Notes: a model not told the origin generated them from the letters alone. A DNA stretch of 64,000 nucleotides from Verrucomicrobiota bacterium (GCA_050485245.1 JBJHBA010000013.1:56992-120991); one strand, 5' to 3'. Positions 6,450-46,622 are shown, counted from the first letter of the stretch. A program made the numbers and translations.

Positions 6450-7925
6450 TTAAAGGGCCTTTTCCAGAAAGGCATGCAGCTTTTGGGCAAAGCCAGGGCC
6501 AATCCCAGGAACAGCAGTCAAATCATCGACCGTTGCCTGCCGAAGTTTGGCCAGGGTTCCGAAGTGATCGAGCAGTGCCTCTTTACGTTTGGGACCAAGG
6601 CCGCTGAAATCATCGAGGACGGACTCCTTCAACCTGCGGCTGCGCAGTTCAGCGTTGTAGGTGTTGGCCACGCGGTGGGCTTCGTCCCGAACCCGCTGGA
6701 GAAGCAGGCGGGCAGGGTCGGTGTCCGCCAACTTGAGGGGTTCGCGCTGGTCCGGAAAGACAATGGTCTCTTCCTTTTTGGCCAAACCTACCAGCGCTGG
6801 TGGCTCCAGGCCCTGTCCCAGAAAGGCTTTGAGCGCGGAGGCCACCTGTCCGCGCCCGCCGTCGATCACAATGAGGTCGGGGAAAGGCCGTTCTTCTTCG
6901 AACAAGCGACGGTAGCGGCGGCCCACCACTTCTTCCATCGCCCGGAAATCGTCATTCCCGATGAAACTCTTGATTTGATAGCGGCGGTATTGGGACTTGT
7001 CGGGCACGCCCTCGGTGAAGTGTACCATTGAGGCTACGCAAAAGGTCCCGGAAATGTGGGAGATATCAAAGCACTCGATATGGCGGGGTGGGGCGGGCAA
7101 CTGCAGCTTCTCGCCCAGACGTTCGAGAATGGGCAATGGATCGCGTGGGCGGCGCGGATCGCGCACAAACTTGCGGGTGCGGGAAATGGTGCCGCGCAGG
7201 GCCTGGATAAGGTCCCGCAACTCAGCGGCTTTCTCAAATGCGAGAGCGGCGGAGGCCTCCAGCATCTCTGTTTCCAGTTCCTTCAACCATTCCCGCGATT
7301 TGCCTTCGAGGAAGACGCAGGCCGAGCGCACGCGCTGATTGTAATCCGCCTCACTGACGATGTTGGCATGCCCATAAATCTCGGCCCGGATGTCGTCATA
7401 GAGCTGCCAGTGGCCGTCTTTCAGCCGCTGGGGGGAGGCATCGTGAAGAAGAATCCCGTATTTTACCCGCAGTTCAGCCAGAGTCTTGCGGACAAATCCA
7501 GAATGGGCAAAGGGGCCGAAGTAGAGCGACTGCTCATTCTGACGGAAACGCACCAGGCGAAAGCGGGGCAAGGGATTTTCCACATCGACCCGCACCATGA
7601 GGAAGCGTTTGTCATCGACGAAGTCGGTATTGTATTTCGGCTTCCACTCTTTGATCAGCTTTCCTTCGAGCAAGAGCGCTTCGCTTTCGCTGCGCACCTC
7701 GACGATTTCAAAATCGTGGATCAAGTCGATCATCGCAGCGACCTTGGGCTGTTGCCACTGCTTGCGGCGCGAATCCTGAAAATAGCTGGATACCCGACGC
7801 CGCAGGTTTTTGGCCTTTCCGACATAGAGGATGCCGCCAAAGCGGTCCTTCATCAGGTAGACGCCGGGGCCTTCCGGCAGGCGCCGGACTTTCTCCTTGA
7901 GTTTACTGCGGTCGGGAGGTGGCAT
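6450..7925 (-). CDS. uvrC: Excinuclease ABC subunit C
   Basis: Motifs are GIY-YIG (GVYLMKDRFGGILYVGKAKNLRRRVSSYF), a UVR domain (FEKAAELRDLIQAL), the endonuclease domain (ECFDISHISG) and a C-terminal HhH (AVPGIGPGFAQKL). Start set at MPPPDRSK (7925); the track ORF begins at 7970. Confidence 0.9.
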   Translation of the reverse strand: MPPPDRSKLKEKVRRLPEGPGVYLMKDRFGGILYVGKAKNLRRRVSSYFQDSRRKQWQQPKVAAMIDLIHDFEIVEVRSESEALLLEGKLIKEWKPKYNTDFVDDKRFLMVRVDVENPLPRFRLVRFRQNEQSLYFGPFAHSGFVRKTLAELRVKYGILLHDASPQRLKDGHWQLYDDIRAEIYGHANIVSEADYNQRVRSACVFLEGKSREWLKELETEMLEASAALAFEKAAELRDLIQALRGTISRTRKFVRDPRRPRDPLPILERLGEKLQLPAPPRHIECFDISHISGTFCVASMVHFTEGVPDKSQYRRYQIKSFIGNDDFRAMEEVVGRRYRRLFEEERPFPDLIVIDGGRGQVASALKAFLGQGLEPPALVGLAKKEETIVFPDQREPLKLADTDPARLLLQRVRDEAHRVANTYNAELRSRRLKESVLDDFSGLGPKRKEALLDHFGTLAKLRQATVDDLTAVPGIGPGFAQKLHAFLEKAL

Positions 7926-7988
7926 TTTATGACAGTCCTGATATAGTGTCTCTCTATCAGCGTTCCGCAAGGCGCGCTTGTATCCGTT

Positions 7989-9266
7989 ATGTCCCGTCCG
8001 CTCCGAGTCGAACTTCTTTGCCTTGGCGATGAGCTTTTACTGGGGATCCGCACCAACACCCACCTCGGATTCCTCGGTCAATCGCTCTCAGCCCATGGCC
8101 TGCCAGTCAGCCGTTCCCACGAGCTGCTCGATCAGCCTGCCCTCATCCGGGAGGTGTTCTCCGAAGCCTGGGCCCGAACCGATCTACTCATCACGACCGG
8201 TGGCCTCGGGCCGACGACGGATGACCTGACCCGCGAGACCATTGCCGAAGTATTGGGACGCAAACTGGTGCACTCCCCGGAGCAGGAAGCGCTTTTGCGG
8301 GATTTTTTTCAGTCCAGAGGCTACAGCCTGCCCACCAGCAACCTCCGGCAGTGCTACCTCATCGAAGGGGCGCAGGCACTCCACAATCCGCGGGGAACCG
8401 CTCCCGGTCAATGGCTGGAGGCCGACGGGAAAATTCTTATCATGTTACCCGGCCCGCCCAATGAGCTGACCCTGATGTGGGAAAAAGAAGCCCTCCCCCG
8501 GCTGGTGGCCAGGGAATGGGCGCGTCCCCGGGACCGATTCCTCCAGATCCGCACCAGCGGCATCGGCGAAAGCGCCCTCGCTGAAAAGATCGAGCCGATT
8601 CTGGCACCGCACGCTGACAAACTGCTGGTAGCCTACTGTGCCCACCCCGGCCACGTCGATCTGCGGCTCAGCCCGATTGGAAACGCACTGCGACAGGAGA
8701 CCTTGCAGGCGATCGGCGACCAAATCCGCGAAGTATTGGGCGATGATTTTTCCCATTTCGGGGAATGCGACTTGGCCGAGGTCATTATCCATGAACTGCG
8801 GGAGCGGGAACGCACCCTTGCCGTGGCCGAGTCCTGTACCGGCGGCCTGCTGGCCAGCCGCTTCACGGATATTTGTGGAGCCTCCCGCGTCTTCATGGGG
8901 GGCGCGGTTTGCTATCGGAACACAGTCAAAGAAAACCTGCTGGAAATCCCATCCGCACTGCTCAGTCAGCACGGCGCCGTCAGCCCGGAAGTGTCTGTGG
9001 CGATGGCGACCGCCGCCGCCGATCTCTTTGAGGCTGACTACGCCCTGAGTATCACCGGTTACGCTGGTCCCTGCGGAGGGCGTGAGCCACCGGGCACGGT
9101 TTATATCGGCCTCTCCAGCCCGCTGGGGGTCTGGTCTAAAAAGGTCGTCGCCCACGGGGATCGGGAGACGGTCAAACTGCGGGCCGTCAACGCTGCCCTC
9201 GATCTGCTCCGCCGCAAGATGCGCAAGTGCCAGGTTTATGATTTTCTCGACCGGCTCTGCATCTGA
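7989..9266 (+). CDS. cinA: CinA family protein (MoCF-binding domain plus NMN deamidase PncC domain)
   Basis: Motifs are LLCLGDELLLG and TTGGLGPTTDDLT in the N-terminal domain, and AVAESCTGGLLA in the C-terminal deamidase domain. Confidence 0.9.
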   Translation: MSRPLRVELLCLGDELLLGIRTNTHLGFLGQSLSAHGLPVSRSHELLDQPALIREVFSEAWARTDLLITTGGLGPTTDDLTRETIAEVLGRKLVHSPEQEALLRDFFQSRGYSLPTSNLRQCYLIEGAQALHNPRGTAPGQWLEADGKILIMLPGPPNELTLMWEKEALPRLVAREWARPRDRFLQIRTSGIGESALAEKIEPILAPHADKLLVAYCAHPGHVDLRLSPIGNALRQETLQAIGDQIREVLGDDFSHFGECDLAEVIIHELRERERTLAVAESCTGGLLASRFTDICGASRVFMGGAVCYRNTVKENLLEIPSALLSQHGAVSPEVSVAMATAAADLFEADYALSITGYAGPCGGREPPGTVYIGLSSPLGVWSKKVVAHGDRETVKLRAVNAALDLLRRKMRKCQVYDFLDRLCI

Positions 9267-9292
9267 TGGCATAAAAAGCGCATCCCGTTATC

Positions 9293-10165
9293 ATGAATCT
9301 CTTCTCTCTCGAGTTCTGGCTGCGCGAAATCACCATCGGCAATCTGGCTTTCTCTCCGCTCTCCATCCTCGGCGGATCCATCCTGCTGCTCGTTGTCATT
9401 CTGGTTCAGCGCATCCTGACCAAGGCCCTGCGCTACCGGATCTTTCCCCGTTTTGGCTTTGAGCCTGGCCTGGCCTTCGCTTACTCCGTCCTGGTCGGAT
9501 ATCTCTTTCTTTTCTTCGGCCTCGCCATGGTCCTGCCGATGGCCATCCGGGGTTTCAACTGGGCCACCCTCTCTGTCATTCTCGGTGCCATTTCCTTCGG
9601 TATCGGCTTCGGACTGCGCAACATCGCCGATAATTTTGTCTCCGGCATCATCATCCTGATGGAGCGCCCGATCAAAGTCGGGGACCGGATTGAGATGGGA
9701 GCACTGACTGGGAACGTAATTTCCATCAACGCCCGCAGCACCACGGTGCGGACCAATGATAATATCGACATCATTGTCCCCAACTCGCAACTCATCTCCG
9801 AGCAGGTGATTAACTGGAGTCACGGGGACCGAAAAGTGCGCTTCAAGATTCCTGTTGGCGTGCACTACAAGAGCGATGTCTTTGAGGTGCGCGATGCGCT
9901 CGTAGCCGCTGCCGTCAAAAATCCGCATGTGATGACGCAGCCCGCGCCCTCCGCCCGTTTTCTGGCCTTCGGGGATTCCGCTCTGGAATTTGAACTGCGT
10001 GTCTGGACCGAAACCCGCAGCGATAACCCCCGCGCCTTTCAGAGCGAAATGAATTTCCTGATCTGGGAGGAATTTAAAAACCGCAAAATCGAGGTTCCTT
10101 ATCCCCAACGGGACCTCTACATCAAGGAAATGCCCAGGGGAGAGACCGTCCTGGAAGAGGCTTAA
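9293..10165 (+). CDS. Mechanosensitive ion channel (MscS family)
   Basis: Three N-terminal TM helices, followed by ERPIKVGDRIEMGALTGNVISINARSTTVRTNDNIDIIVPNSQL (MscS beta domain). Confidence 0.85.
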   Translation: MNLFSLEFWLREITIGNLAFSPLSILGGSILLLVVILVQRILTKALRYRIFPRFGFEPGLAFAYSVLVGYLFLFFGLAMVLPMAIRGFNWATLSVILGAISFGIGFGLRNIADNFVSGIIILMERPIKVGDRIEMGALTGNVISINARSTTVRTNDNIDIIVPNSQLISEQVINWSHGDRKVRFKIPVGVHYKSDVFEVRDALVAAAVKNPHVMTQPAPSARFLAFGDSALEFELRVWTETRSDNPRAFQSEMNFLIWEEFKNRKIEVPYPQRDLYIKEMPRGETVLEEA

Positions 10166-11007
10166 GCCGGATTATTTCGCGCCCTTGTCTGCAAGCGACG
10201 CCGAAGGACCATCCCGGCCAGGGCCAAAGCACCCAGGATAGCGGCATAGGTCGAGGGCTCAGGAACGGTGGTCAGGTTGAAATGAACCTCGACGCCGAAA
10301 GCACCGATGAAATCATCGTTAAGCGATCCATCCACAATCTCTGCAAAAAGAATGGAGGCCTCGTATTGGGTTCCCAAAAGCAGGGTATCGGCCGGAAGCT
10401 CAAACCCAGTGGCATCAGGAGCGAGCATCCACTCAAAATCAGCATGCACACCGTCTGTAATGCGGAGCTGAATCAGCGCATTCGACGCGTTTGCATAAGT
10501 GGCTCCATTCCAAGTCAAAGATAAGGATTGAGAAGGGTCATACCATTGGGCATCCGACCAGGAAGTGCCCGTCAGGCCGGGGAGGACGCCAACCCCAAAG
10601 TCAGGGTATGCATCCGCCGTCAGGTCAATCGTGACGAAACCTGATCCAAATGTCCCGCCACTGTAATTAAAGGTGTAGGTCAAATCCGATGGCCAAACCG
10701 CATCAAAGGAAGCCTTGTCCGCATAGGTCGCGCGCAGATCGAAGACGGCATCGCCCGATCCGGTGTCCTGAATCATGGGCAAAGTGGTGCTGCCTGAGGA
10801 TAAAGTCACCTCGCTGAAGGCACCTGCTTCGGCTTCGATGGCTGCGTCGATCATCCAAGATCCGGCTTCCGCCGCTGAATCGCTTGTCTGATAGTGATTC
10901 TGGATCTTTGCGACGAGGTAATGGTCGATGACTTGTGATGGAAGTGCAGCCGTCAAAAAAGCACCACAGATGACCGAAAGAAGAACGGAGCGAAAACTCG
11001 GTTTCAT
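10162..11007 (-). CDS. PEP-CTERM sorting-domain secreted protein
   Basis: N-terminal signal peptide MKPSFRSVLLSVICGAFLTAALPSQ. The C-terminal VPEPSTYAAILGALALAGMVLRRR matches the PEP motif plus TM plus basic tail. Confidence 0.8.
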   Translation of the reverse strand: MKPSFRSVLLSVICGAFLTAALPSQVIDHYLVAKIQNHYQTSDSAAEAGSWMIDAAIEAEAGAFSEVTLSSGSTTLPMIQDTGSGDAVFDLRATYADKASFDAVWPSDLTYTFNYSGGTFGSGFVTIDLTADAYPDFGVGVLPGLTGTSWSDAQWYDPSQSLSLTWNGATYANASNALIQLRITDGVHADFEWMLAPDATGFELPADTLLLGTQYEASILFAEIVDGSLNDDFIGAFGVEVHFNLTTVPEPSTYAAILGALALAGMVLRRRLQTRARNNPA

Positions 11008-11403
11008 GAGCGTTCCTGAAGGAGGTTAAAGTAAGAGAGAGGGAATAATTTTTATTCATCTGGGGAATATCCATCAATCGAAACTGACTTGGATTGCACT
11101 TATTGAAGCCGTCCTGTCAGGCTTCATCAATTTGGCTAATCCCTGCTTGAGGGCAGCTCAAGGAGGTTCTGCCAAGGGGGGATCTGCCTGAAAAACAGTA
11201 TGTTTTGACGTTTTCTCGGCTCGATTTAGACGATTCTTATCGCCAAAAGTGAAAAAATGCTCCTTTCTCTTATGTTCTTTCGAGAGACGTTACGAGTCAG
11301 AGCCTGGTGGATTGTCAGTTGGAGAAAGCTCCTTTGATGATTTGAAACCCGATTAGCGGGAACAGTCTGTATATTCGCGCGGATCAGCGAAATCATCATC
11401 AAT

Positions 11404-11847
11404 ATGAGCAATTCCAAACTCTACGTGGGCAATCTGTCCTTCGATTTGGACGAAGCCGCCATCCGCGCGGCTTTTGAAGAAAGCGGTGAAGTCACCGATG
11501 TGTTCGTCGTCATGGATAAAATGACCGGACGCCCCCGCGGCTTTGCCTTTGTCACCATGGGGAGCCCTGAAGCTGCCCAGGCTGCCATTGAGCAGTGGAA
11601 CGGGACCGAACTCGGTGGCCGTGCCCTCACAGTCAACGAAGCCCGTCCGAAAGAAGAACGCAGTGGCGGTTTCGGTGGCGGCGGCGGCCGCTCCTTCGGC
11701 GGTGACCGTCGCGGTGGCGGCGGAGGCCGTTCTTTCGGCGGTGGCGGCGGAGGCCGCTCCTTCGGCGGTGATCGTCGCGGTGGCGGCGGAGGCCGTTCCT
11801 TCGGCGGTGATCGTCGCGGTGGTGGCGGCGGCGGCAGCCGTTACTAA
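11404..11847 (+). CDS. RRM-type RNA-binding protein with Gly/Arg-rich (RGG-like) tail
   Basis: RNP2 is LYVGNL and RNP1 is RGFAFVTM. The tail reads [15 protein letters not shown], repeated. Confidence 0.9.
11676..11838 (+). repeat. In-frame tandem repeat (about 39-nt unit GGCGGCGGAGGCCGYTCYTTCGGCGGTGAYCGTCGCGGT, 3 full copies plus one 27-nt copy) encoding [13 protein letters not shown]
   Basis: Read directly from the sequence at 11676-11838, inside the RRM gene. Confidence 0.8.
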
Positions 11848-11875
11848 TCGAGCCCTGCGCTCCCAATACTTTCAA

Positions 11876-11910
11876 CCACACGCTCGGGAAAACCGGCGTG
11901 TGGTTTTTTT
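11876..11910 (+). terminator. Rho-independent terminator of the RRM gene
   Basis: Stem CCACACGC (11876-11883) pairs with GCGTGTGG (11896-11903). It is followed by T7 (11904-11910). Confidence 0.7.
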
Positions 11911-11946
11911 ATGCCCCGAAGGGGAGTGCACGAGCTGGACCGAAGC

Positions 11947-12744
11947 TCAAATCGGGCGACTTTGTGGTTCGGTGACTGGCGGTAAGGACGGTTTTGATCC
12001 GGGCGGGTAACGCTCCAGAAAACGTGGCCAATCTTCGACCATGTTCTTGATCAGTTGGGCGAAGGCCTTGGTTTCGGTATCGCGCCGGACCTGATCCGCG
12101 GTTTCCCGGGTTCCCCAGGAGGTGGAGTGGGCGTGATTGCGCTCGGTGGCCTCGTAGGCTGAGTAAATGTAGCCGGTGCGCGTATCGATCAACATGGCTG
12201 TGGCCGTGGTGGTGGCGTAAATTTTCCGGTTGGGGGACAGCCCGAGGGTGATGACAGAAAGTGCCTTCCCTTTGTGCGCATCAAAGAAAACCGTATCAAA
12301 GGTGTAGAGCAGAACCAAATCCGCTTTGAGGCGGGCGGCGGAGTCCCGAATATCGCGGTCGCTCTCAATCCGATTGGGTAGGACCAAGCGGTTGAGGCGG
12401 ACGATGCCCTTGATGTGAGGCAGCTCCCCGATCGATTGCAAATGCAGTTCTTCCCCCAATTCATTGGCCAGAACTACAGTAAAACGTCCACCTCCGAAAC
12501 TGCCCCCATGCTGGCTGAGGTAGTGATTGCTGTAAGCCGTGCCCTGAACCCGCACCACCGCAATACTGGCTGGATACGGATAACTCGGCTCGAGCGCAAA
12601 TGCATCCCGCATGCTGGGAGGAGTGAACTGCTGCAAATCCGCACGGGTCCCCGGCGTGTGGTAACTTTCACATCCACTCATCAGGACGAGCAAAGGGAGT
12701 ACAAGGGCGGGGAAAATTAAAGACAGCTTTTGCATGCAGTTCAT
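11947..12744 (-). CDS. Hypothetical lipoprotein
   Basis: The internal start MNCMQKLSLIFPALVLPLLVLMSGC gives a signal peptide with a lipobox (LMSG|C). No family is recognised with confidence. The upstream part of track ORF (to 12846) is not signal-like. Confidence 0.6.
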   Translation of the reverse strand: MNCMQKLSLIFPALVLPLLVLMSGCESYHTPGTRADLQQFTPPSMRDAFALEPSYPYPASIAVVRVQGTAYSNHYLSQHGGSFGGGRFTVVLANELGEELHLQSIGELPHIKGIVRLNRLVLPNRIESDRDIRDSAARLKADLVLLYTFDTVFFDAHKGKALSVITLGLSPNRKIYATTTATAMLIDTRTGYIYSAYEATERNHAHSTSWGTRETADQVRRDTETKAFAQLIKNMVEDWPRFLERYPPGSKPSLPPVTEPQSRPI

Positions 12745-36356: not shown

Positions 36357-37943
36357 ATGACCGCACTTTTCTCCCTCGCATTCTTCGATGCCACTGCTGA
36401 GTTTCTCCGTTCAGTAGATGCCGCGGCCCTGGGACGGATCAATACCACCGTCCTGCTGCTTTCGATCCTGACCCCGCTCTGTGTGGCCATTGCCCTGGCG
36501 ACTACCGGCAAGGTTACCAACGCAGCTATTCGTGGAGCCGGCCTCTTTGGTTTTTTGGTTCCTTTTCTCGGGGCAACCTGGCTGTTCGTCTCCTACCAGA
36601 CGATTGTTCAGGATGGAGGCTACGCCTTTCTGTTTATCGCGCCAACCGGACTGGAATTTATCGGCATCCACCTGTTTCTCGGCCTCAACGGTATTTCCAT
36701 GCCGCTCTTCTGGATGGCCTCCATCGTCGGTCTGGCTGCCGGATGGTACGGACTGCGGGAAGACAAGGATCGCTTGCGGATTTTTGCCATCCTGCTGCTG
36801 ACTATGCAAACAGGCCTGATGGGTCTCTTTGCCTCGATCGATATCTTCTTCTTTTACTTCTTCCACGAATTCGCCCTTATCCCGACTTTCATCATGATCG
36901 CGATGTGGGGTGGACGTGGCCGCAAGGTGGTGGCGCTGGAACTGACCATCTACCTGACCGTCGGCGCCATGCTGACTCTGGCCGGACTGATTGCCCTATT
37001 CATCTTCAGCGGAGCGTCCTCCTTCGACATGATCACCTTGCGTCAGTCCATTGCTGACATTCCGGCGGAGAAAACCGTTTTTGCCCTGCTCTTGGTCGGA
37101 TTCGGTATCCTTGTTTCGCTCTTTCCCTTCCACACCTGGGCTCCGCGTGGTTATGCCACGGCTCCGGCCTCCGTCGCCATGCTGCATGCGGGGGTACTGA
37201 AAAAATTCGGCCTGTATGGCTTGATCCAGATCGCCCTCCCACTGCTTCCCGAAGGCCGTGAATTCTGGGCTCCAACCCTGATGTGGCTGGCCATCGGCAA
37301 TGTGCTCATCATAGGCTTTGTCACGCTGGCCCAGCGTGACCTCAAATACATGCTGGGGAATGCCTCTGTCATGCACATGGGCTACGCCTTCCTCGGCCTG
37401 TTTGCCTATTCAACCGTCGGGGTGGGGGGAGCCGTCCTCATGCTCTTTGCCCACGGCCTGTCCATCGCCCTCTTGTTCCTGCTCGCCGACGTGATCGAGC
37501 ATCGGGCCGGAACCACCGAGTTCAGCGAACTGGGTGGGCTCTCCAAGAGTGCTCCGGTGCTGATGGCATTTTTCGTTGCCGGGACCATGGCCAGCATCGG
37601 CCTGCCGGGTTTTGCCAACTTCTGGGGAGAAATGGCCATCTTCGTGGCATTGTTCAAATCGTCCACTCCCTGGGTGGTGGTCCCGGCGGTGGCTGGGATC
37701 GTGATCAGCGCCATCTATGGTCTTCGGGCCGTTTCCCGGATTTTCTTCGGTGCATCCAAGCGCACTTACGACGGGGGTGATCTTACCACCCAGGAAAAAT
37801 TCCCCGCCTTTCTCCTTTTGATCGCCCTATTGGTGGTCGGCTTCTGGCCCCGCCTTTTCTCCGACAATCTGGATGCCTCCATTCAGGCCAACGGAGTACC
37901 ATCTTCCACCGCTACCGTCGTCGAGACGGCTTTATCCGAGTAA
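36357..37943 (+). CDS. nuoM: NADH-quinone oxidoreductase subunit M
   Basis: Antiporter-like subunit with HTWAPRGYATAPASVAMLHAGVLKKFGLYG, in the conserved operon position. Confidence 0.9.
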   Translation: MTALFSLAFFDATAEFLRSVDAAALGRINTTVLLLSILTPLCVAIALATTGKVTNAAIRGAGLFGFLVPFLGATWLFVSYQTIVQDGGYAFLFIAPTGLEFIGIHLFLGLNGISMPLFWMASIVGLAAGWYGLREDKDRLRIFAILLLTMQTGLMGLFASIDIFFFYFFHEFALIPTFIMIAMWGGRGRKVVALELTIYLTVGAMLTLAGLIALFIFSGASSFDMITLRQSIADIPAEKTVFALLLVGFGILVSLFPFHTWAPRGYATAPASVAMLHAGVLKKFGLYGLIQIALPLLPEGREFWAPTLMWLAIGNVLIIGFVTLAQRDLKYMLGNASVMHMGYAFLGLFAYSTVGVGGAVLMLFAHGLSIALLFLLADVIEHRAGTTEFSELGGLSKSAPVLMAFFVAGTMASIGLPGFANFWGEMAIFVALFKSSTPWVVVPAVAGIVISAIYGLRAVSRIFFGASKRTYDGGDLTTQEKFPAFLLLIALLVVGFWPRLFSDNLDASIQANGVPSSTATVVETALSE

Positions 37944-37955
37944 TCCATTTTTGCG

Positions 37956-39470
37956 ATGAACGATCTATCGAGTCTTCGTGTGCTGACCGACACCCATTCC
38001 TGGGTGGCCATTCTTCCTGAAATCATCCTCGGAGTCAGTGCCCTGTTGCTGCTGGTGCTGGAAGTGGGCCTGCCCAAACTGCGCAAATCGATTCCTGCCA
38101 TCGCCATTGCCCTTCAAGGCATCGTCCTCGCCTATGTCCTGTGGCTGATTATCGGGGTGAGCCGGGCGGGGCCCGAAAGCTACTTCGCCGGAATGATTCT
38201 GCAGACGGGCACCACTGACCTGATGCGGGCCTTTTTCATCGGCTCCGGAGTGGTGGTTTCCCACCTCGGCATGGTCTACCTGAAGCGCCACCCCCTCGCC
38301 CGGGTGGAATTCTTCCACCTCGTCATGGTGGTGGTCGCAGCCATGATGCTGCTCGTCCAGAGCAGTCATTTTGCCATGCTCTTTGTCGCCCTCGAGACAG
38401 TCACGATCGGCTTCTATATCCTCGTCGCTTACGGCCGCACCAATTCGCTCTCCCTCGAAGCCGGGCTCAAATATCTCATCGCGGGTGCGCTCAGTTCCGG
38501 CATCATGCTCTTTGGCATCGTCCTCCTTTTCGGTGTCGGCAGCAACCCTCTCCTGCCGGGTAGCAGCATCGATCCGCTCCAGTTCGGCAATCTGGCCACC
38601 TTTCTCGCTGCCAGCGGTGAAGCCGGACCCAATGCCCACAACCTGATGGCCCTGATCGGCGCTGGCCTCGTGCTTTCGGGTATCGCTTTCAAAATCGGTC
38701 TCGTTCCTTTCCAGATCTGGATCCCCGATGTCTACCAGGGCGCGCCGACTCCGATCACCGCCTTTCTCGCCGTTGCTTCCAAGGCGGCCGGGGTGATGCT
38801 GCTCATCCTCCTCCTGAGCGGTCCCTTTGCGGCGCTCTCCCACCTGACCACTCCGCTGCTCACCGTGCTGACCGCACTGACCTTACTTTTCGGGAATCTC
38901 GCCGCCCTGCCGCAGCGCAACGTCAAGCGCCTGATGGGACTCTCCGGCGTGGCCCATGCCGGCATCCTGCTCCTCGGTGTCATCGCCTCCAGCCAAGTGC
39001 CCTGGGCCGCCACCGCCGTCCTCTTCTATCTCTTTGTCTATGCCCTCGCTTCCTTCGGGGTGTTTGAGGTCATGGCCCATGTCGGCGCGGACAATGATGC
39101 CGATCAGGAAATGGAGTATTACAGCGAGCTGATGCAGAAACAACCGGGGCTCGGTGCTGGCCTCGCCATTGGCTTGGGCTCACTCGCCGGCATCCCCCCG
39201 CTCGCCGGGTTCATTGCCAAGTTGCTGATCTTTTACGCGGCCTTTCAGGCCGGTCTCTATGTCCTCCTCGGGCTGGCCATTTTTGGCGTCATCCTGTCCA
39301 TTTACTACTACTTCGGCTGGATGCGGGCCTCGGTGATGAAAGGCCTCTTCCTCGATCAGGAATGTCCGGAAGTCAGAATCCCCGGCAGCGGTGCCAAAGT
39401 CATTCTCTACACTGTCAGCGCACTGACCGTCGTTCTTGGGCTCTATCAGGGAATGATCAACTTGGGCTGA
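37956..39470 (+). CDS. nuoN: NADH-quinone oxidoreductase subunit N
   Basis: Antiporter-like subunit with PFQIWIPDVYQGAPTPITAFLAVASKAAG. It is the last gene of the operon. Confidence 0.9.
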   Translation: MNDLSSLRVLTDTHSWVAILPEIILGVSALLLLVLEVGLPKLRKSIPAIAIALQGIVLAYVLWLIIGVSRAGPESYFAGMILQTGTTDLMRAFFIGSGVVVSHLGMVYLKRHPLARVEFFHLVMVVVAAMMLLVQSSHFAMLFVALETVTIGFYILVAYGRTNSLSLEAGLKYLIAGALSSGIMLFGIVLLFGVGSNPLLPGSSIDPLQFGNLATFLAASGEAGPNAHNLMALIGAGLVLSGIAFKIGLVPFQIWIPDVYQGAPTPITAFLAVASKAAGVMLLILLLSGPFAALSHLTTPLLTVLTALTLLFGNLAALPQRNVKRLMGLSGVAHAGILLLGVIASSQVPWAATAVLFYLFVYALASFGVFEVMAHVGADNDADQEMEYYSELMQKQPGLGAGLAIGLGSLAGIPPLAGFIAKLLIFYAAFQAGLYVLLGLAIFGVILSIYYYFGWMRASVMKGLFLDQECPEVRIPGSGAKVILYTVSALTVVLGLYQGMINLG

Positions 39471-39472
39471 TC

Positions 39473-40810
39473 TCAGTCGATCGAGATCCACTCTTCCGTG
39501 TCAAGAATCCAAAAGACCCGTGGATTGGAAGTGCCCGGATGGTAGGCGAGCCAGCCATAGCCTGAAAAATCATAGAGCCAGCCGTATTTTTCAGATAAGG
39601 CGAACGTCCATCCCAAGGAAAGGTCCCACACCCACCATCCATGTGATATGGCCTTCTCTTCATCAAACCACCACCAGCCGTGGTCTTCGTGCCAGAGCCA
39701 GGGATAGAAGGTGTCATTGACCCAACCAATATGGAAATGCCTCAACCACCCGTCGGCATGACGATGTGTCCCGAGAAAGCGCGACGGCCGTTCCACCCGC
39801 TCAAGTTCGACTGGAAAGCGGATTCCGCGCAGAGTTAAGGGAATGCCGATTTCCATCCAGAGTTCATTTTCAAAATGGGCTTCTTGGATATAAGCGCTCC
39901 GGACCCATGCGCCTGATTCGTCCTGATATGCGAAGTTGGCCCGAACGACCCGAATTTCAGAGTCCTCCCGCCCATCCAGACGAAATACGGCAGCACCAAT
40001 CCCGATATTTTCCTCTCCGACGGCGGCAATCTGCGGACCTTCCCCCACAATGTGCACCAGCTCGATCCGCGCTTCCAAGTCTTCGGCCGTCAGCTCTATC
40101 GCTTGGCCATTCTCGATCGAGAAGACGCGGAAATAAGGGATTCCGCAGCAAACATCATCGCGGTTATCAAACACGTACCAGCGGGGGCCAGGATATCTGG
40201 TTATCTGATACCCGCCTTCATCCCCGCCACTGGCCATTACATAGTCGACGCCTTCCCAGTTCTCCCGGACCCATTCGGCTAACCGTTCCCCGTGCAACGG
40301 AGTCGGCAGCCTGAAACTCCAGTGCACATAAGGAGCTTCTCCAATCCGATAAGTGCTCCCTTCTCCATACTGCGCCTGCAGGTCTAGCCAAGGTTGATAG
40401 GTTCCTGCTTGAAGGGCTCTATCCACCTGAAAGCTTGGATTGGTCAAAGAAAAATGCCCTGGTACCCAGTACGTCCAGACAGAGGTCTGAGAGATGGCCG
40501 GATCCTTGCCATAGATCAACATCAGGTCATCGAATATCGCGGCCACTTTCTCCGGATTCGCCTCCAGTTCGCCGTCTTCCAGCAGCGTCAAATGCACCGC
40601 CCGATTCATCGCCGCTTCTTCCAGATCCCATCCTCCATACCTCCAGGAGGGAGTGTACCACATTTCAGCATCTTCGGGATCGTAAAACTCCCGCTCAAAT
40701 CGTTCCCCCTCCGGGAAATCGGTCTGCGCCTCCAGTGGAGATAGCATGATGCAAAGCGCAGAGATGAGAGTGCCTATGCTTGGATTCCGATAGAAAGAAG
40801 TGACAAACAT
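39473..40810 (-). CDS. Hypothetical secreted protein with Trp-rich C-terminal repeat module
   Basis: 445-aa ORF with signal-like N-terminus IGTLISALCIMLSPLEAQ and non-shadow amino-acid composition. The last 92 aa contain 15 Trp in repeated GW-x-W/Y motifs. No family recognised. Confidence 0.6.
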   Translation of the reverse strand: MFVTSFYRNPSIGTLISALCIMLSPLEAQTDFPEGERFEREFYDPEDAEMWYTPSWRYGGWDLEEAAMNRAVHLTLLEDGELEANPEKVAAIFDDLMLIYGKDPAISQTSVWTYWVPGHFSLTNPSFQVDRALQAGTYQPWLDLQAQYGEGSTYRIGEAPYVHWSFRLPTPLHGERLAEWVRENWEGVDYVMASGGDEGGYQITRYPGPRWYVFDNRDDVCCGIPYFRVFSIENGQAIELTAEDLEARIELVHIVGEGPQIAAVGEENIGIGAAVFRLDGREDSEIRVVRANFAYQDESGAWVRSAYIQEAHFENELWMEIGIPLTLRGIRFPVELERVERPSRFLGTHRHADGWLRHFHIGWVNDTFYPWLWHEDHGWWWFDEEKAISHGWWVWDLSLGWTFALSEKYGWLYDFSGYGWLAYHPGTSNPRVFWILDTEEWISID

Positions 40811-40886
40811 GGTCGTCGCCTAACCTGAAACCGGAGCTAAGGTCAATTGATTAGTTTATGTCGCGGCTTGTGCGGTGGGAGCGGCC

Positions 40887-43442
40887 TTAGCAATTGGCGT
40901 CCAGAAGTGCCTGCAGGAATTCGCGCAGGCAAGGCACATCATCCGTCGCCGGATCTGCCAGCATTTCGGCCAAAACCGAGCAGAAACGGGCATGCCCCTC
41001 AGGACCAGCCAGATAGACCGGGAAGGATTCCGGGTTATTCCAGCCGTCGGCAACGAAGTGATTGAATCCTTCGAGAATCCACCGCTTTTGCTGACAACGT
41101 CGTACTTCTTCGCGCTTTTCGGCAAAGATCGGGCTGATCGCATCAAGAAACGCCCGACGCAGGCGATTGATCTCCCGCTCAAGTTCTCGGATTTGCTCGC
41201 GGATGTCTTCCCAGCCTTCCTGCGTCTCGCGCACGAAGTCCCGATAACCGTCGAGTTCCGCCTTGTCCGCATCTGTCAAAGCACTGCGCCCATTGAGCAT
41301 GGCATCAATGATCCGGTCCATATCGCCTTCCGGCCGCTGGTCACCCTGGAAGAATTCGCGGAGGGCTCTGATATGAATGTCTTTCAGGCAGTCCCCATAT
41401 TGTTGAAAGGCCATTTCCAAAAGAACATCTCCGTCGGCTGCCTCCTTGGCGGCTTCGGCCATCGCTTCATCGTAGCTTTTGCCATGCATCAAGCCATGGG
41501 CAAGGGTGCGTTGATAAGTCAGCTGGGCATCTGTCCCGACAAGAACCGGATCGGTCGGTAGAGCGGTTTGAATCAGAATCTGGCAATGACCCGTGACCCG
41601 TGACCATTCACCGCCCACTTCGAGCATATTGCTCCAGGCCGACTCTCGCCAGCCAGCCGCCAGCAGGATATGCAGGGGCATGGTATCACGCATTTCCCGG
41701 ATGTCGCGGAACTCTTCCCGCATCTGCTCGTAGAGAGCTTTAATCTGGGCCTGCAAGGCCTCAATCTGCGCCTTGTAATCCTCGTAGATTGCTTGAATCT
41801 CCGGACAGTTAAAACCGATTTCCACCCAAGATGGCGGCCAGTTGCGGCGGAAATTATGGTTCCGCATGTTGATGTCTTCGTTGAAAATCGCGGCCTTTTC
41901 TTCGAGCCGGGCAATCACTTCCTCAAGCAGGGCTTCCGCCATTCCCCGGATTTCAGGATCATTCGTTGGACAGGGTCCGGTTCCTGAACCATCAGCCGGT
42001 GGAATCACATCGCCTCCTTCGGCCGGGCCATCACCTTCGGGTGGTTCCTCCCGGTCCGGATAGGGCCATGGTGGAGAGGCATCACCGCCCGGACCGACTC
42101 CCGGAGGCGGAGGAGGACCATCACCACCTCCGGCACCGTCTCCGCCGCCACCACCGTTGCCACCGCCGTTACCGCCACCGCCATTTCCTGGTCCCGGTCC
42201 AGGGCCAGGGATAATCGGCCACTCCACGATCGGGGGAATCTTGAAGGCGGGTGGTATCCAAACCATGCGGCAGGGAATATCCTCCGGGTCAAAAGGAGGC
42301 GATTCCAAGGTGGACCCTCGACCTGTGCCGCAGGTCAAGTCAACCCGCTTGATGGAAAAATAAGCCGGGGCCGAAGGGTCGCAGGCCACACTGCCGGACG
42401 GCGCACAATAGGCGTCCACATTGACCGCATTGTAACGGTGGCGTTTGGTATTTCCCCGCAGACACAGTTCCCAGACTTCCTGCATCACCCCAGCGGAACC
42501 AGGTGAGTTCGTCGTGTTCAGAATGAGTTCCAGCTCGGCGATCGCCGGATCGCGCAAGGTGCCCAAGCCTTCGTGCTCACGTGCGTGCGCCTGAATTTCG
42601 AAGGCTTCCCGCCCATCCAGATTGATGATCGCAGCAAAATGCACCTCAAAATGAGGGGTGCCGCAGTCCGTGACCACCTGATCAATGAAATCACGAATCA
42701 GAAATACCCGGTCTCCATTGGTAATCGCCTGATGAAGATGCGACGAAACGCTGCTGGCTTGTGGCGCCGGACCATAGGACAATAAAGCGTTGATCAACGT
42801 GTTGTAGAAAGTTTCATCAGCCGCCCGTACCGCTGTCAGATTGATGATGTTGGGCCAGTGGTGAAAGGGCATGAGGTACTGGTGAGTCAGCCCGCCAAGG
42901 GGAGCAGTGATACTGCCCGCCGTGTTTACCCGGGCTTCCACTTCGGAGAAATCAAGATTGGCGGAAGTATCCACATCCCATCCATAGCCGAGGAAAAATA
43001 CATCCACCCGCCCGGTCTGATCGTGACGGTACTCCGCATCACAGGTGCTGGTAGGATGCTGGAGAGCCGTGATACTGACAGGTAGGGGGGCGGGGGCGGC
43101 AGCGATCATGGCAGGATTGGCCAGCCACGCAAACTGGGTGGTGCCAGGTGCCACCGGGAAACGGAATTGGGCAGGTGTGGTGGTTCCGCTCGGCAAGGAA
43201 ATTGGGATCCAGCCAACCATAAAGTCCGGCGAGTGCCAGAGTTCATAATCATCGCTTACCGTCCCGGTGATTTCCACCACCATCGATTGCTGCCCGGGAA
43301 TCACGACGGAATGGATCTCAGGGGCGGACTTCACTATGGTCGTCGCGAACAGGGTCAGGGTGGATACGAATCCAGTCAACCAGTAGGGCCTCAATTTGAC
43401 TGGCCAAAAAATTGAATGCAAGGGTCGGTGCGGTGCGGACAT
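40887..43442 (-). CDS. Hypothetical large (851 aa) membrane-anchored/secreted multidomain protein
   Basis: Hydrophobic segment YWLTGFVSTLTLFATTIV near the N-terminus. An N-domain of about 370 aa is followed by an 80-aa Gly/Pro/Asn spacer (PGPGPGPGNGGGGNGGGNGGGGGDGAGGGDGPPPPPG...). The C-domain is about 350 aa, Glu/Arg-rich and helical. No family recognised. Confidence 0.65.
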   Translation of the reverse strand: MSAPHRPLHSIFWPVKLRPYWLTGFVSTLTLFATTIVKSAPEIHSVVIPGQQSMVVEITGTVSDDYELWHSPDFMVGWIPISLPSGTTTPAQFRFPVAPGTTQFAWLANPAMIAAAPAPLPVSITALQHPTSTCDAEYRHDQTGRVDVFFLGYGWDVDTSANLDFSEVEARVNTAGSITAPLGGLTHQYLMPFHHWPNIINLTAVRAADETFYNTLINALLSYGPAPQASSVSSHLHQAITNGDRVFLIRDFIDQVVTDCGTPHFEVHFAAIINLDGREAFEIQAHAREHEGLGTLRDPAIAELELILNTTNSPGSAGVMQEVWELCLRGNTKRHRYNAVNVDAYCAPSGSVACDPSAPAYFSIKRVDLTCGTGRGSTLESPPFDPEDIPCRMVWIPPAFKIPPIVEWPIIPGPGPGPGNGGGGNGGGNGGGGGDGAGGGDGPPPPPGVGPGGDASPPWPYPDREEPPEGDGPAEGGDVIPPADGSGTGPCPTNDPEIRGMAEALLEEVIARLEEKAAIFNEDINMRNHNFRRNWPPSWVEIGFNCPEIQAIYEDYKAQIEALQAQIKALYEQMREEFRDIREMRDTMPLHILLAAGWRESAWSNMLEVGGEWSRVTGHCQILIQTALPTDPVLVGTDAQLTYQRTLAHGLMHGKSYDEAMAEAAKEAADGDVLLEMAFQQYGDCLKDIHIRALREFFQGDQRPEGDMDRIIDAMLNGRSALTDADKAELDGYRDFVRETQEGWEDIREQIRELEREINRLRRAFLDAISPIFAEKREEVRRCQQKRWILEGFNHFVADGWNNPESFPVYLAGPEGHARFCSVLAEMLADPATDDVPCLREFLQALLDANC

Positions 43443-43601: not shown

Positions 43602-44081
43602 TTATCCGTTGGTACGGTAGCGCCGGATTTCAAAGGCGGATTCCTGCCGGATGACTTCAGGTGCTCCAAACAGGTGCTCAAATGGGGGGAAGCAAGCATC
43701 GCCTTCGAAGTTGCCATACACGACCGTGAGCATGAGTTCGTGGACCTTGGGCAAGGCCTGACGATAGATCTCGGAGCCTCCGAATATCCAGACCTCTCCT
43801 GCGGTCGGATGCCTTTCCAATGCCTCCAGTGAAGGGAGCACGGTGCAGCCCGGGATGATCTGAACCGATCGGGTAATCACAATGTTCTCCCGCCCCGGGA
43901 GGGGCCGCCCGATCGACTCATAGGTTTTCCGGCCCATCGCAATACTCTGGCTCTGCGTACACTGCTTCACCCACTTGAAATCCTCGGGCAGATTCCACGG
44001 TATCCGCCCATGGTCACCAATCACACGATTCTCCGCCATCGCCGCGATGGCCTTCCAGGGTTTGTCAACTTGCTGAGTCAT
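43602..44081 (-). CDS. folA: Dihydrofolate reductase
   Basis: Motifs are AIAAMAENRVIGDHGRIPW, MGRKTYESIGRPLPGRENIVITR and VWIFGGSEIY. Confidence 0.9.
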   Translation of the reverse strand: MTQQVDKPWKAIAAMAENRVIGDHGRIPWNLPEDFKWVKQCTQSQSIAMGRKTYESIGRPLPGRENIVITRSVQIIPGCTVLPSLEALERHPTAGEVWIFGGSEIYRQALPKVHELMLTVVYGNFEGDACFPPFEHLFGAPEVIRQESAFEIRRYRTNG

Positions 44082-45986: not shown

Positions 45987-46622
45987 TCAGAGAGGGATTT
46001 GCATGGAGAGCGTGCCCATGTGGGTCTTCACGCTGCCCTCAGTGATGGAATAGCCCAGTCCGATTCCATACCCACGCTCAAACCACTTCTGGATTTGGGC
46101 ACCGAAGGTGAATGCGGATTCACGGGACTTGTCGTGGCGATCCCAACCGGCGGTGTAAACCATGGTAAGGGAATCTGAGAAGGGAACTTGTACCCCGGCC
46201 TCGAAGCCATAAATCCAGGAATCGTCATTCCCCGGGAGATTGACGCCGCCCACTCGGGTGCGGGTCCATCCGTAACCGGTGCTAGCACCCAGAAATGGCT
46301 GGACTGCTTCAAGTGGAAGCCAAAAGCGCAAGCCACCGGAGAGGTCGTGCCCACGGGCGGTGATGCTGTTGCCGGAGACGTTGGCGTATCCGTAGCTGAG
46401 GATGGCGTCAACATGGTAGAAGCCTTCGGTCACGGCAGCAAAATTAGCCGTGGCACCACCATGGTAACCACTCATGCTGCTGGGCAAACCAGTGTCGCTC
46501 AGGCGGATGTGGCTAGCCTCGAGTTGAAGGTAAGTCGCGCCCAAAAGGTTGGACGGAGTTTCCGCTGCAGATGCTACGGTGGCAGACGCCAGCGCGAGAA
46601 AAGCGAACAGTTTCAGTTTCAT
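45987..46622 (-). CDS. Outer-membrane beta-barrel protein (small OMP, OmpA-like barrel/OmpW-like)
   Basis: Signal peptide MKLKLFAFLALASATVASA. The body has alternating aromatic/Gly-rich strands, e.g. GLRFWLP, GYGWTRT and YGFEAGVQVPF. Confidence 0.7.
   Translation of the reverse strand: MKLKLFAFLALASATVASAAETPSNLLGATYLQLEASHIRLSDTGLPSSMSGYHGGATANFAAVTEGFYHVDAILSYGYANVSGNSITARGHDLSGGLRFWLPLEAVQPFLGASTGYGWTRTRVGGVNLPGNDDSWIYGFEAGVQVPFSDSLTMVYTAGWDRHDKSRESAFTFGAQIQKWFERGYGIGLGYSITEGSVKTHMGTLSMQIPL

Follow-up and report, generated by a model that had tools for sequence, protein, structure and literature searches.

Two co-directional minus-strand open reading frames (ORFs) of 851 and 445 aa, 76 bp apart, lie between nuoN and folA in a 64,000-nucleotide stretch of DNA from a Verrucomicrobiota bacterium (GCA_050485245.1 JBJHBA010000013.1:56992-120991), which was analyzed over its full length and is called the window here. 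The original prediction had proposed that these two genes form a cassette for an undescribed envelope system, and its coordinates for both were confirmed (Table 1). From the comparative analysis described below, we concluded that the large and the small gene are probably two independent chromosomal genes for Sec-exported proteins of uncharacterized families, which are neighbors in this lineage and do not constitute a system.

Table 1. Features of the large and small genes and of their predicted products in the window (AF2, AlphaFold2; pLDDT, predicted local distance difference test).
Feature	Coordinates	Strand	Description	Basis
Large gene	40887..43442	-	851 aa, ATG start	ORF listing
Large residues 1-40, signal-peptide-like N-terminus	43323..43442	-	basic n-region, hydrophobic LTGFVSTLTLFATTIV, then KSA	hydropathy and relatives
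Large residues 41-135, variable beta-rich N-terminal region, possibly Ig-like	43038..43322	-	9-21% identity to relatives; AF2 strands, low confidence	
Large residues 136-375, conserved alpha/beta core domain	42318..43037	-	32-38% identity to relatives, the best-conserved part	
Large residues 376-495, Pro/Gly/Glu-rich low-complexity spacer	41958..42317	-	spacer in all relatives; pLDDT <50, no secondary structure	
Large residues 496-851, conserved helical C-terminal domain (~355 residues)	40890..41957	-	ends ..NC; AF2 long helices, pLDDT 65-84	
Intergenic spacer, large/small genes	40811..40886	-	76 bp	sequence
Small gene	39473..40810	-	445 aa, ATG start	ORF listing
Small residues 1-28, predicted signal peptide	40727..40810	-	core IGTLISALCIMLSPL, likely cleavage EA/Q	hydropathy; relatives' N-termini comparable
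Small residues 52-232, N-domain, subtilase-prodomain-like by transitive homology	40115..40657	-	ends in conserved Cys pair	
Small residues 233-342, poorly conserved middle region	39785..40114	-	specific to ~430-aa subfamily	alignment A6
Small residues 343-445, Trp/Tyr-rich ~100-aa terminal module	39476..39784	-		profile and alignment A7

Both ORFs are genuine genes and not chance frames, because each has homologues sharing conserved columns and each shows native codon usage. The coding pattern GC1>GC2<GC3 (G+C content at the three codon positions) was present in both, their GC3 values of 0.61 and 0.60 compare with a window mean of 0.646 (standard deviation 0.066), and their Jensen-Shannon distances in codon usage to the window genes (0.025 and 0.058) were typical, codon usage being indistinguishable from that of the window's other 44 long ORFs. 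The ordinary, non-shadow composition ascribed to them earlier was borne out in all of these measures, and the plus-strand ORFs that overlap them, of 182 and 228 aa, are shadows.

Both protein families are unnamed, as had been judged by eye. Searches with hmmscan against the hidden Markov models (HMMs) of Pfam-A, NCBIfam 20.0, PHROGs and PADLOC gave no significant match for either protein, only sub-threshold coiled-coil or low-complexity noise, and phmmer searches of all PDB chain sequences gave no significant match for either. A few matches at E~0.01 lay on the Gly-rich linker or on coiled-coil-like helices, and PDB matches to major histocompatibility complex (MHC) and single-chain variable fragment (scFv) chains were rejected, as they arise from Gly linkers. 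With the family profiles (A4, A6, A7 and A8) and with protein P0150, nothing significant was recovered among the PDB sequences.

The original prediction had named a lack of pair conservation in related genomes as refuting it, and the pair was absent from all informative loci. On the large-family side, eight loci were compared (L001, L002, L004-L008 and P0006, the last on a short contig), five of them with 8-10 kb of downstream flank, by tblastn with the small protein, all-vs-all BLAST of ORFs >=100 aa and an HMM of the Trp-rich module that ends the small protein (the Trp module). A small-family gene or Trp-module ORF was found in 0/8, no other gene was common to these loci, and the downstream gene differed in every one; the neighbors encode an epimerase, GroEL, a DDE transposase, a MacB-type ABC permease, a subtilase, valyl-tRNA synthetase, an M32 carboxypeptidase and a SpoIIE-type phosphatase.

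The informative small-family loci (L009, L010/L011/L015-L017 and L018/L019) likewise held no large-family gene. The gene order in L010, L011 and L015-L017 is clpB, small-family gene, acetolactate decarboxylase, and tandem paralogue pairs or enlarged versions of the small-family gene occur in the metagenome contigs of L018 (1390-4700), L019 (480-3790), L012 (2-2346) and L009 (857-2962). In L003 and L014 the small-family gene stands beside thiamine-synthesis and Glx-tRNA-synthetase-type genes, with <350 bp upstream, so that this side is uninformative. Genes or fragments of the Glx-tRNA-synthetase type (tRNA-synt_1c / Anticodon_2) were noted in L002 (2669-2833), L003 (3913-5304) and L014 (1643-3025), a proximity that is probably background synteny in related genomes and not a link. 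Loci L010 (7030-11092) and L015 (4868-8888) represent a close relative of the window organism, with ClpB 89% identical and synteny to the window at 11.4-17.4 kb. In this relative the small-family gene directly follows clpB and is not near nuo or folA, while the window has no gene at that site, the synteny breaking after clpB; the adjacency seen in the window is therefore lineage-specific. Taken together, we favor the view that it reflects a chance neighborhood of two hypothetical surface or secreted proteins and not a conserved functional cassette.

Export of both proteins is probable, because of their N-terminal hydrophobic segments, the lipoboxes or signal peptides of relatives, the conserved Cys residues and the extracytoplasmic fusion partners. 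The signal or anchor segments predicted earlier for the two N-termini were recovered by hydropathy. In the small protein, the strongest hydrophobic segment covers residues 10-28 (mean Kyte-Doolittle value 2.04) and leads into PLEA/Q, the slash marking the predicted cleavage point; in the large protein, a moderate one (residues 22-38, 1.55) lies behind a basic n-region, and neither protein has another transmembrane-like segment. Relatives of the large protein have lipoboxes or signal peptides at the same position (LILGPMGC in P0003, AAAFLAC in L006 and MLFAAAC in L008). The large protein deposited at NCBI (P0001) is an 830-aa version with a non-ATG start 21 codons downstream, which skips window 43380-43442, and the n-region of the signal peptide is better with the upstream ATG than with the NCBI start. 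Both modules of the small protein, described below, have fusion partners that are all of extracytoplasmic types, namely the C-terminal domain (CTD) of the type IX secretion system (T9SS), PKD, Big_7, subtilases and CotH.

Relatives of the large protein were searched for in a 5.8-billion-protein collection, with a linker-free profile and in one genome per GTDB species; because words from the Pro/Gly linker saturated the word-indexed search, it was repeated with a linker-free alignment. The 5.8-billion-protein search returned the large protein itself (the 830-aa NCBI call) and two relatives at 26-27% identity, the linker-free profile contributed one further relative (P0006), and the GTDB scan gave five more loci, from two Desulfobacterota metagenome-assembled genomes (MAGs; a 1456-aa version and a frameshifted one), an uncultured Verrucomicrobiota MAG, a Pedosphaera MAG with a split gene and a Planctomycetota MAG. 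These relatives (P0002, P0003, P0006 and L004-L008) are 26-34% identical to the large protein across 72-98% of its length. Because the relatives are few and none in the species-representative set is closer than ~34% identity, the large gene is rare and patchy across Verrucomicrobiota, Planctomycetota and Desulfobacterota, and its product is a member of a sparse unnamed family of proteins predicted to be exported or of lipoprotein type. In the Desulfobacterales locus L005 (4973-12134) the large gene is broken into two frames that overlap (6932-10330 and 10257-12134), and it adjoins a DDE_Tnp_1 transposase gene; the split gene is a pseudogene or else reflects an error in long-read assembly. The large gene of the Pedosphaera locus L007 (3667-11776) is split as well (9810-10502 and 10382-11776) and lies after the gene for a 1751-aa subtilase and before that for valyl-tRNA synthetase.

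The anatomy proposed earlier for the large protein held for the Cys-containing middle, the Pro/Gly spacer and the helical, Glu/Arg-rich C-domain, whereas the Ig-like start is supported only indirectly: Big_5 (PF13205) matches 3/9 relatives in the variable N-terminal region, and Flg_new_2 matches L004, with no Pfam match to Big_5 in the window protein. Sixty columns are invariant across seven full-length family members of ~30% overall identity. The core domain contains the motifs FHxWPNIINLT, RDFI, EVHY..INLD, LxDP and W.LCLRGN, and 17 of its polar residues are invariant in 7/7 members (H140, D158, H194, N198, R245, D251, N274, D276, E282, H286, D298, C327, R329, N331, D343, R366 and C371); Cys residues of the large protein occur at 260, 327, 346, 354, 371 and 391. 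No Pfam or PDB-sequence match was found for this domain. Every family member has a conserved PxxPWP motif (P458-W459-P460; window 42063-42071) within the spacer, which is thus more than a mere linker. The invariant residues of the helical domain are mostly hydrophobic, plus cysteines (C620, C685 and C821 conserved, C851 in 6/7). These patterns suggest a catalytic or ligand-binding role for the core domain and a disulfide-stabilized structural role for the helical domain. A hydrolase-type active site or ligand pocket is the simplest reading of the core, because of its dense invariant polar residues, and the chance that this domain is an enzyme seems to us a little less than even.

Peptidases of clan CD share a caspase-hemoglobinase fold in which a His...Cys dyad lies ~35-55 residues apart at strand ends, within His-Gly and Ala/Gln-Cys motifs. 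The His286/Cys327 pair of the large protein may recall this clan (caspase, legumain and gingipain type), a tentative lead with neither HMM nor structural support. The two invariant residues lie at a distance of 41 positions; His286 is placed at the end of a predicted strand (core-domain model pLDDT <50) and is not followed by Gly; among clan CD families C11, C13, C14 and C25, no HMM match was obtained for the window protein or its relatives. A reading of the C-domain stretch GWRESAW as a lytic transglycosylase (SLT) site was rejected, as its Glu is not conserved (KQGLW, RKDWW and RENLW in relatives) and no SLT match was found.

For the small protein, a word-indexed search found one relative, and an exhaustive HMMER search, in which a two-sequence profile was run against 1.84 billion cluster representatives, gave 828 proteins at E<=1e-3 (best E to 1e-128), of which ~10 are full-length relatives; the remainder match one of two modules only, most through the Trp module. 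Full-length relatives, at 25-33% identity, are P0005 and P0007-P0012 together with loci L003, L009-L012 and L014-L019. Metagenome scans for the family gave none in the first and five loci in the second, which used a wider alignment. The small protein is therefore less of an orphan than it had looked, as both modules recur in hundreds of other exoproteins, and it is best described as a predicted exported mosaic of two widespread unnamed modules.

The first of these modules, the N-domain, was matched by its local HMM in 46 segments of 150 retrieved proteins, the window segment joining at an independent E-value of 5e-67. It occurs alone in signal-peptide or lipoprotein forms of 200-300 aa, in tandem in P0095 and P0150, and fused to the T9SS CTD (P0022), FlgD_ig or PKD, its C-terminal partner being the Trp module, T9SS CTD, PKD or none. 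The model PF22148 (Fervidolysin_NPro-like) matches 7 of the 26 N-domain members scanned singly, with a best E of 7e-7 and 46 bits for P0150 against a 21-bit cutoff. These matches cover the central part of the N-domain, and PF16361 (Peptidase_S8_N) matches one member. The prodomain assignment is transitive, because the window protein itself matches no prodomain model; a profile search of PDB sequences with the N-domain family did not recover fervidolysin. A protease-binding, prodomain-like role for the N-domain is a tentative suggestion, attractive because subtilases carry the same Trp module and, in our estimation, appreciably below an even chance. In the window protein, the WGDCPxGC loop that is near-invariant in the N-domain family is reduced to the adjacent C221-C222 (window 40145-40150), which may form a vicinal disulfide or represent a degenerate site.

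The second module accounts for the Trp-repeat ending described earlier, which was confirmed with 15 Trp within the last 105 residues of the small protein. Its consensus is GW..s.WfG......PWIyH..HGW........W.yD..LGW..T....YP..Y......WLYY..G...PR.FY......W., with repeated [YF]PW/GW motifs visible in alignment A7. Among 118 module-only proteins, the Trp module ends <=10 residues from the C-terminus in 100 and <=25 residues from it in 108, while in ~6 it directly follows the signal peptide and precedes domains such as those judged by eye to be cyclophilin/FKBP-like and BNR-like. Its partners are subtilases, CotH plus lamin-tail domains (LTD), Big_7 arrays, ELWxxDGT repeats and PQQ-type beta-propellers. 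The CotH/lamin-tail protein P0030 has two copies (residues 1168-1262 and 1474-1567), each after an LTD and one of them internal, and two adjacent Trp-module ORFs lie on one contig in L013 (5963-8820). The module-bearing proteins scanned had no Pfam or NCBIfam match over the module, nor was there a PDB-sequence match; a 38-sequence profile searched against PDB gave as its sole signal 30 residues of the retinoschisin discoidin domain (E=0.4, not significant). Por_Secre_tail (TIGR04183) did not match the window small protein or 18 other module-bearing proteins, and a literature search gave nothing relevant on a Trp-rich terminal domain in Verrucomicrobia. Because the module is nearly always terminal, tolerates either terminus, has an internal copy and is attached to unrelated exoenzymes, we infer that its role is one of binding or retention and not that of a signal for secretion. 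Whether it is a surface or glycan-binding anchor we regard as an evenly balanced question.

The surroundings of the two genes, which had all been described as housekeeping genes, are mostly but not strictly so. According to Pfam, the plus-strand genes 36357-37943 and 37956-39470 are Proton_antipo_M genes of the nuoM/nuoN type, the nuo identification covering these two genes, and the second converges on the small ORF, their stops being 2 bp apart. On the other side, 43602-44081 (-) is DHFR_1 (folA), 159 bp upstream of the large ORF. Further neighbors are genes for a TPMT-like methyltransferase, MarR, a cupin, DUF3108 and glycogen phosphorylase, a set that qualifies the housekeeping description. 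Among the MarR, cupin and DUF3108 genes, 45987-46622 (-) is an ORF of 211 aa without a Pfam match, whose predicted N-terminus resembles a signal peptide; it may encode another small envelope protein. In the 76-bp spacer between the large and small genes (40811-40886), neither a terminator-like hairpin nor a sigma-70-like promoter was found.

Considering all the above results, we propose a plausible model for the two products. The small protein would be a modular exoprotein whose Trp module, at the C-terminus, serves for binding or retention, with an envelope or extracellular glycan as the probable target, and the same module would tether many different exoenzymes in related bacteria. In the small protein it would display the N-terminal subtilase-prodomain-like domain, which may bind a partner protease, perhaps as its inhibitor or chaperone; the Trp module is also present on several subtilases. 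The large protein would be secreted or lipid-anchored, with a fixed two-domain core: an alpha/beta domain of ~240 aa, whose invariant His, Asp, Asn and Arg residues and one Cys may form a hydrolase-type active site or ligand pocket, and a helical bundle presumably stabilized by disulfides. A spacer of ~100 residues, extended and rich in Pro and Gly, would separate the two, with the variable, putatively Ig-like domain ahead of both.

Several observations weigh against this model and against the independence of the two genes. The genes are co-directional, with a 76-bp gap and no terminator-like hairpin between them, and the pair comparison covered genomes whose versions of these genes stand at ~30% protein identity or below. 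The window small protein, whole or as N-domain segment, had no Pfam match at E<=1 and hence falls below the 21-bit cutoff of PF22148, and its AF2 model, built from two sequences, was unusable (pLDDT 34). The AF2 model of the large protein, from a shallow alignment of four sequences, had a mean pLDDT of 47, with only the helical domain above 65, and so gives no structure-level support. Foldseek, suggested in the original prediction for AlphaFold models of both proteins, was run on the large model and returned only generic coiled-coil or long-helix matches (best E 0.012 in PDB and 0.006 in BFVD). An anchoring role for the Trp module is proposed from its position and partner domains.

Because the 76-bp gap lacks a terminator-like hairpin, a local operon, and with it co-transcription of the two genes, is possible. 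A stronger proposal, that the two genes are a lineage-specific operon whose products cooperate at the envelope, the Trp-module protein for example docking or regulating the large protein, seems unlikely to us. It would fit the shared strand, the predicted export of both products and the prodomain-like N-domain of the small protein, a type that binds an enzyme partner. However, co-occurrence was zero in the eight large-family loci and in all informative small-family loci, and a prodomain-like fold belongs with subtilases, whereas the large protein has no subtilase signature and no invariant Ser. A recently acquired mobile-element or phage cargo island between nuo and folA is very improbable: the GC3 and codon usage of both genes match the window, no tRNA, integrase or repeat boundary lies nearby (the whole window being without a tRNA or Rfam match), tblastn of both proteins against 72,556 plasmids and 50,697 phages gave no match, and the Trp module was not found in IMG/VR. 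These results outweigh the sparse, phylum-hopping distribution of the large family and the transposase gene beside its relative in L005.

The same patchy spread over three phyla, with a secreted multi-domain architecture, could suggest a toxin pair, in which the large protein would act as a secreted toxin or antagonistic effector, either resembling polymorphic toxins or forming alpha-helical pores through its C-domain, and the small protein would provide immunity or an accessory function. ClyA and SmhB pores and TcaA were among the many weak helical Foldseek matches (E 0.14-0.8), but these were not significant and were mixed with dynein, SMC and chemoreceptor coiled coils; a ClyA-like pore reading of the helical domain was rejected as unsupported. 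Both core domains are conserved in the family with no variable toxin tip, no RHS, PAAR, TPS or LXG trafficking domain was found in Pfam or NCBIfam searches, there is no conserved downstream gene and no PADLOC match, and the small protein is predicted to be exported and modular, unlike typical immunity proteins. We consider a toxin pair highly improbable. Least credible is that the ORFs are spurious or decaying and without function. They have no annotation and form singleton clusters in a 15-billion-protein collection, and two large-family relatives (L005 and L007) are frameshift-split; against this stand the uninterrupted frames of 851 and 445 codons, the typical coding GC pattern, the sixty invariant columns in seven large-family members at ~30% identity and the strong small-family profile matches, with E down to 1e-128. 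Two independent exported proteins remain the explanation that we prefer.

These results carry a caution, as adjacent co-directional genes for orphan secreted proteins resemble a system and yet do not pass the most basic comparison between genomes. The material that is left is ordinary, though of use for domain discovery and annotation, and is not a surprising system, and these finds alone open no long-standing question. The Trp module, which accounts for most of the 828 profile matches and has no Pfam or NCBIfam model, is a possible sequence handle for the tethered secretome of poorly studied bacteria of the Planctomycetes-Verrucomicrobia-Chlamydiae (PVC) type; a prodomain-like extracytoplasmic domain that swaps anchors is a second usable item, and the rare three-phylum large family, with its sharply defined invariant residues, is ready for mutagenesis. 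A more far-reaching reading, which we hold to be rather doubtful, is that the Trp module is an undescribed, widespread surface-retention or glycan-binding domain and, separately, that the large protein is the founder of a new envelope hydrolase family, displayed on a Pro/Gly stalk and possibly using a His-Cys dyad. If true, the module would unite subtilases, CotH kinases, adhesins, cyclophilins and prodomain-like proteins as one class of tethered exoproteins in Verrucomicrobiota-like bacteria without T9SS.

Compared with known systems, the locus resembles polymorphic toxin systems (Zhang et al., 2012, PMC3482391) in having a large secreted multi-domain protein with a small co-directional gene directly downstream. 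It differs from them in that the large protein has no trafficking domain and a conserved, not variable, C-terminus, and in that no downstream partner is conserved. The large family also recalls surface lipoproteins with Big_5 (SbsA-type Ig-like) domains, as three of its members have Big_5 and several have lipoboxes; in contrast, the N-terminus of the window protein lacks Big_5, and the conserved core has no counterpart in any library searched.

Prodomains of subtilases are folding chaperones and tight inhibitors of their protease. The N-domain of the small protein is like them, and like the related I9-type propeptide inhibitors, in the PF22148 matches to its central part in 7/26 members, and it is like free propeptide-type inhibitors in occurring without an attached catalytic domain. 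Unlike classical subtilase prodomains, its family has an extra C-terminal extension (GDG.DI...WGDCPxGC), no protease domain is fused to, or conserved beside, the small-family gene, and the window protein is without a Pfam match. PMC8260994 cites the fervidolysin structure. In having alternative termini (Trp module, T9SS CTD, PKD, lipobox only or none), the N-domain of the small protein behaves like the "choice-of-anchor" domains of NCBIfam; it matches no named choice-of-anchor model of NCBIfam 20.0, and the likeness is one of behavior, not homology.

The Trp module, in turn, resembles the T9SS CTD (Por_Secre_tail) and the choline-binding or aromatic cell-wall-binding repeats in its length of ~100 aa, its predicted all-beta structure, its richness in aromatic residues and its C-terminal position on unrelated exoenzymes and adhesins. 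It differs from the Por_Secre_tail, CHU_C-type and CW_binding families in having no HMM match, and from the T9SS CTD in not being strictly C-terminal, as seen in the ~6/118 proteins with the module after the signal peptide and in the internal copy of P0030. Within the N-domain family, the Trp module and the T9SS CTD are nevertheless interchangeable, as exemplified by P0022.

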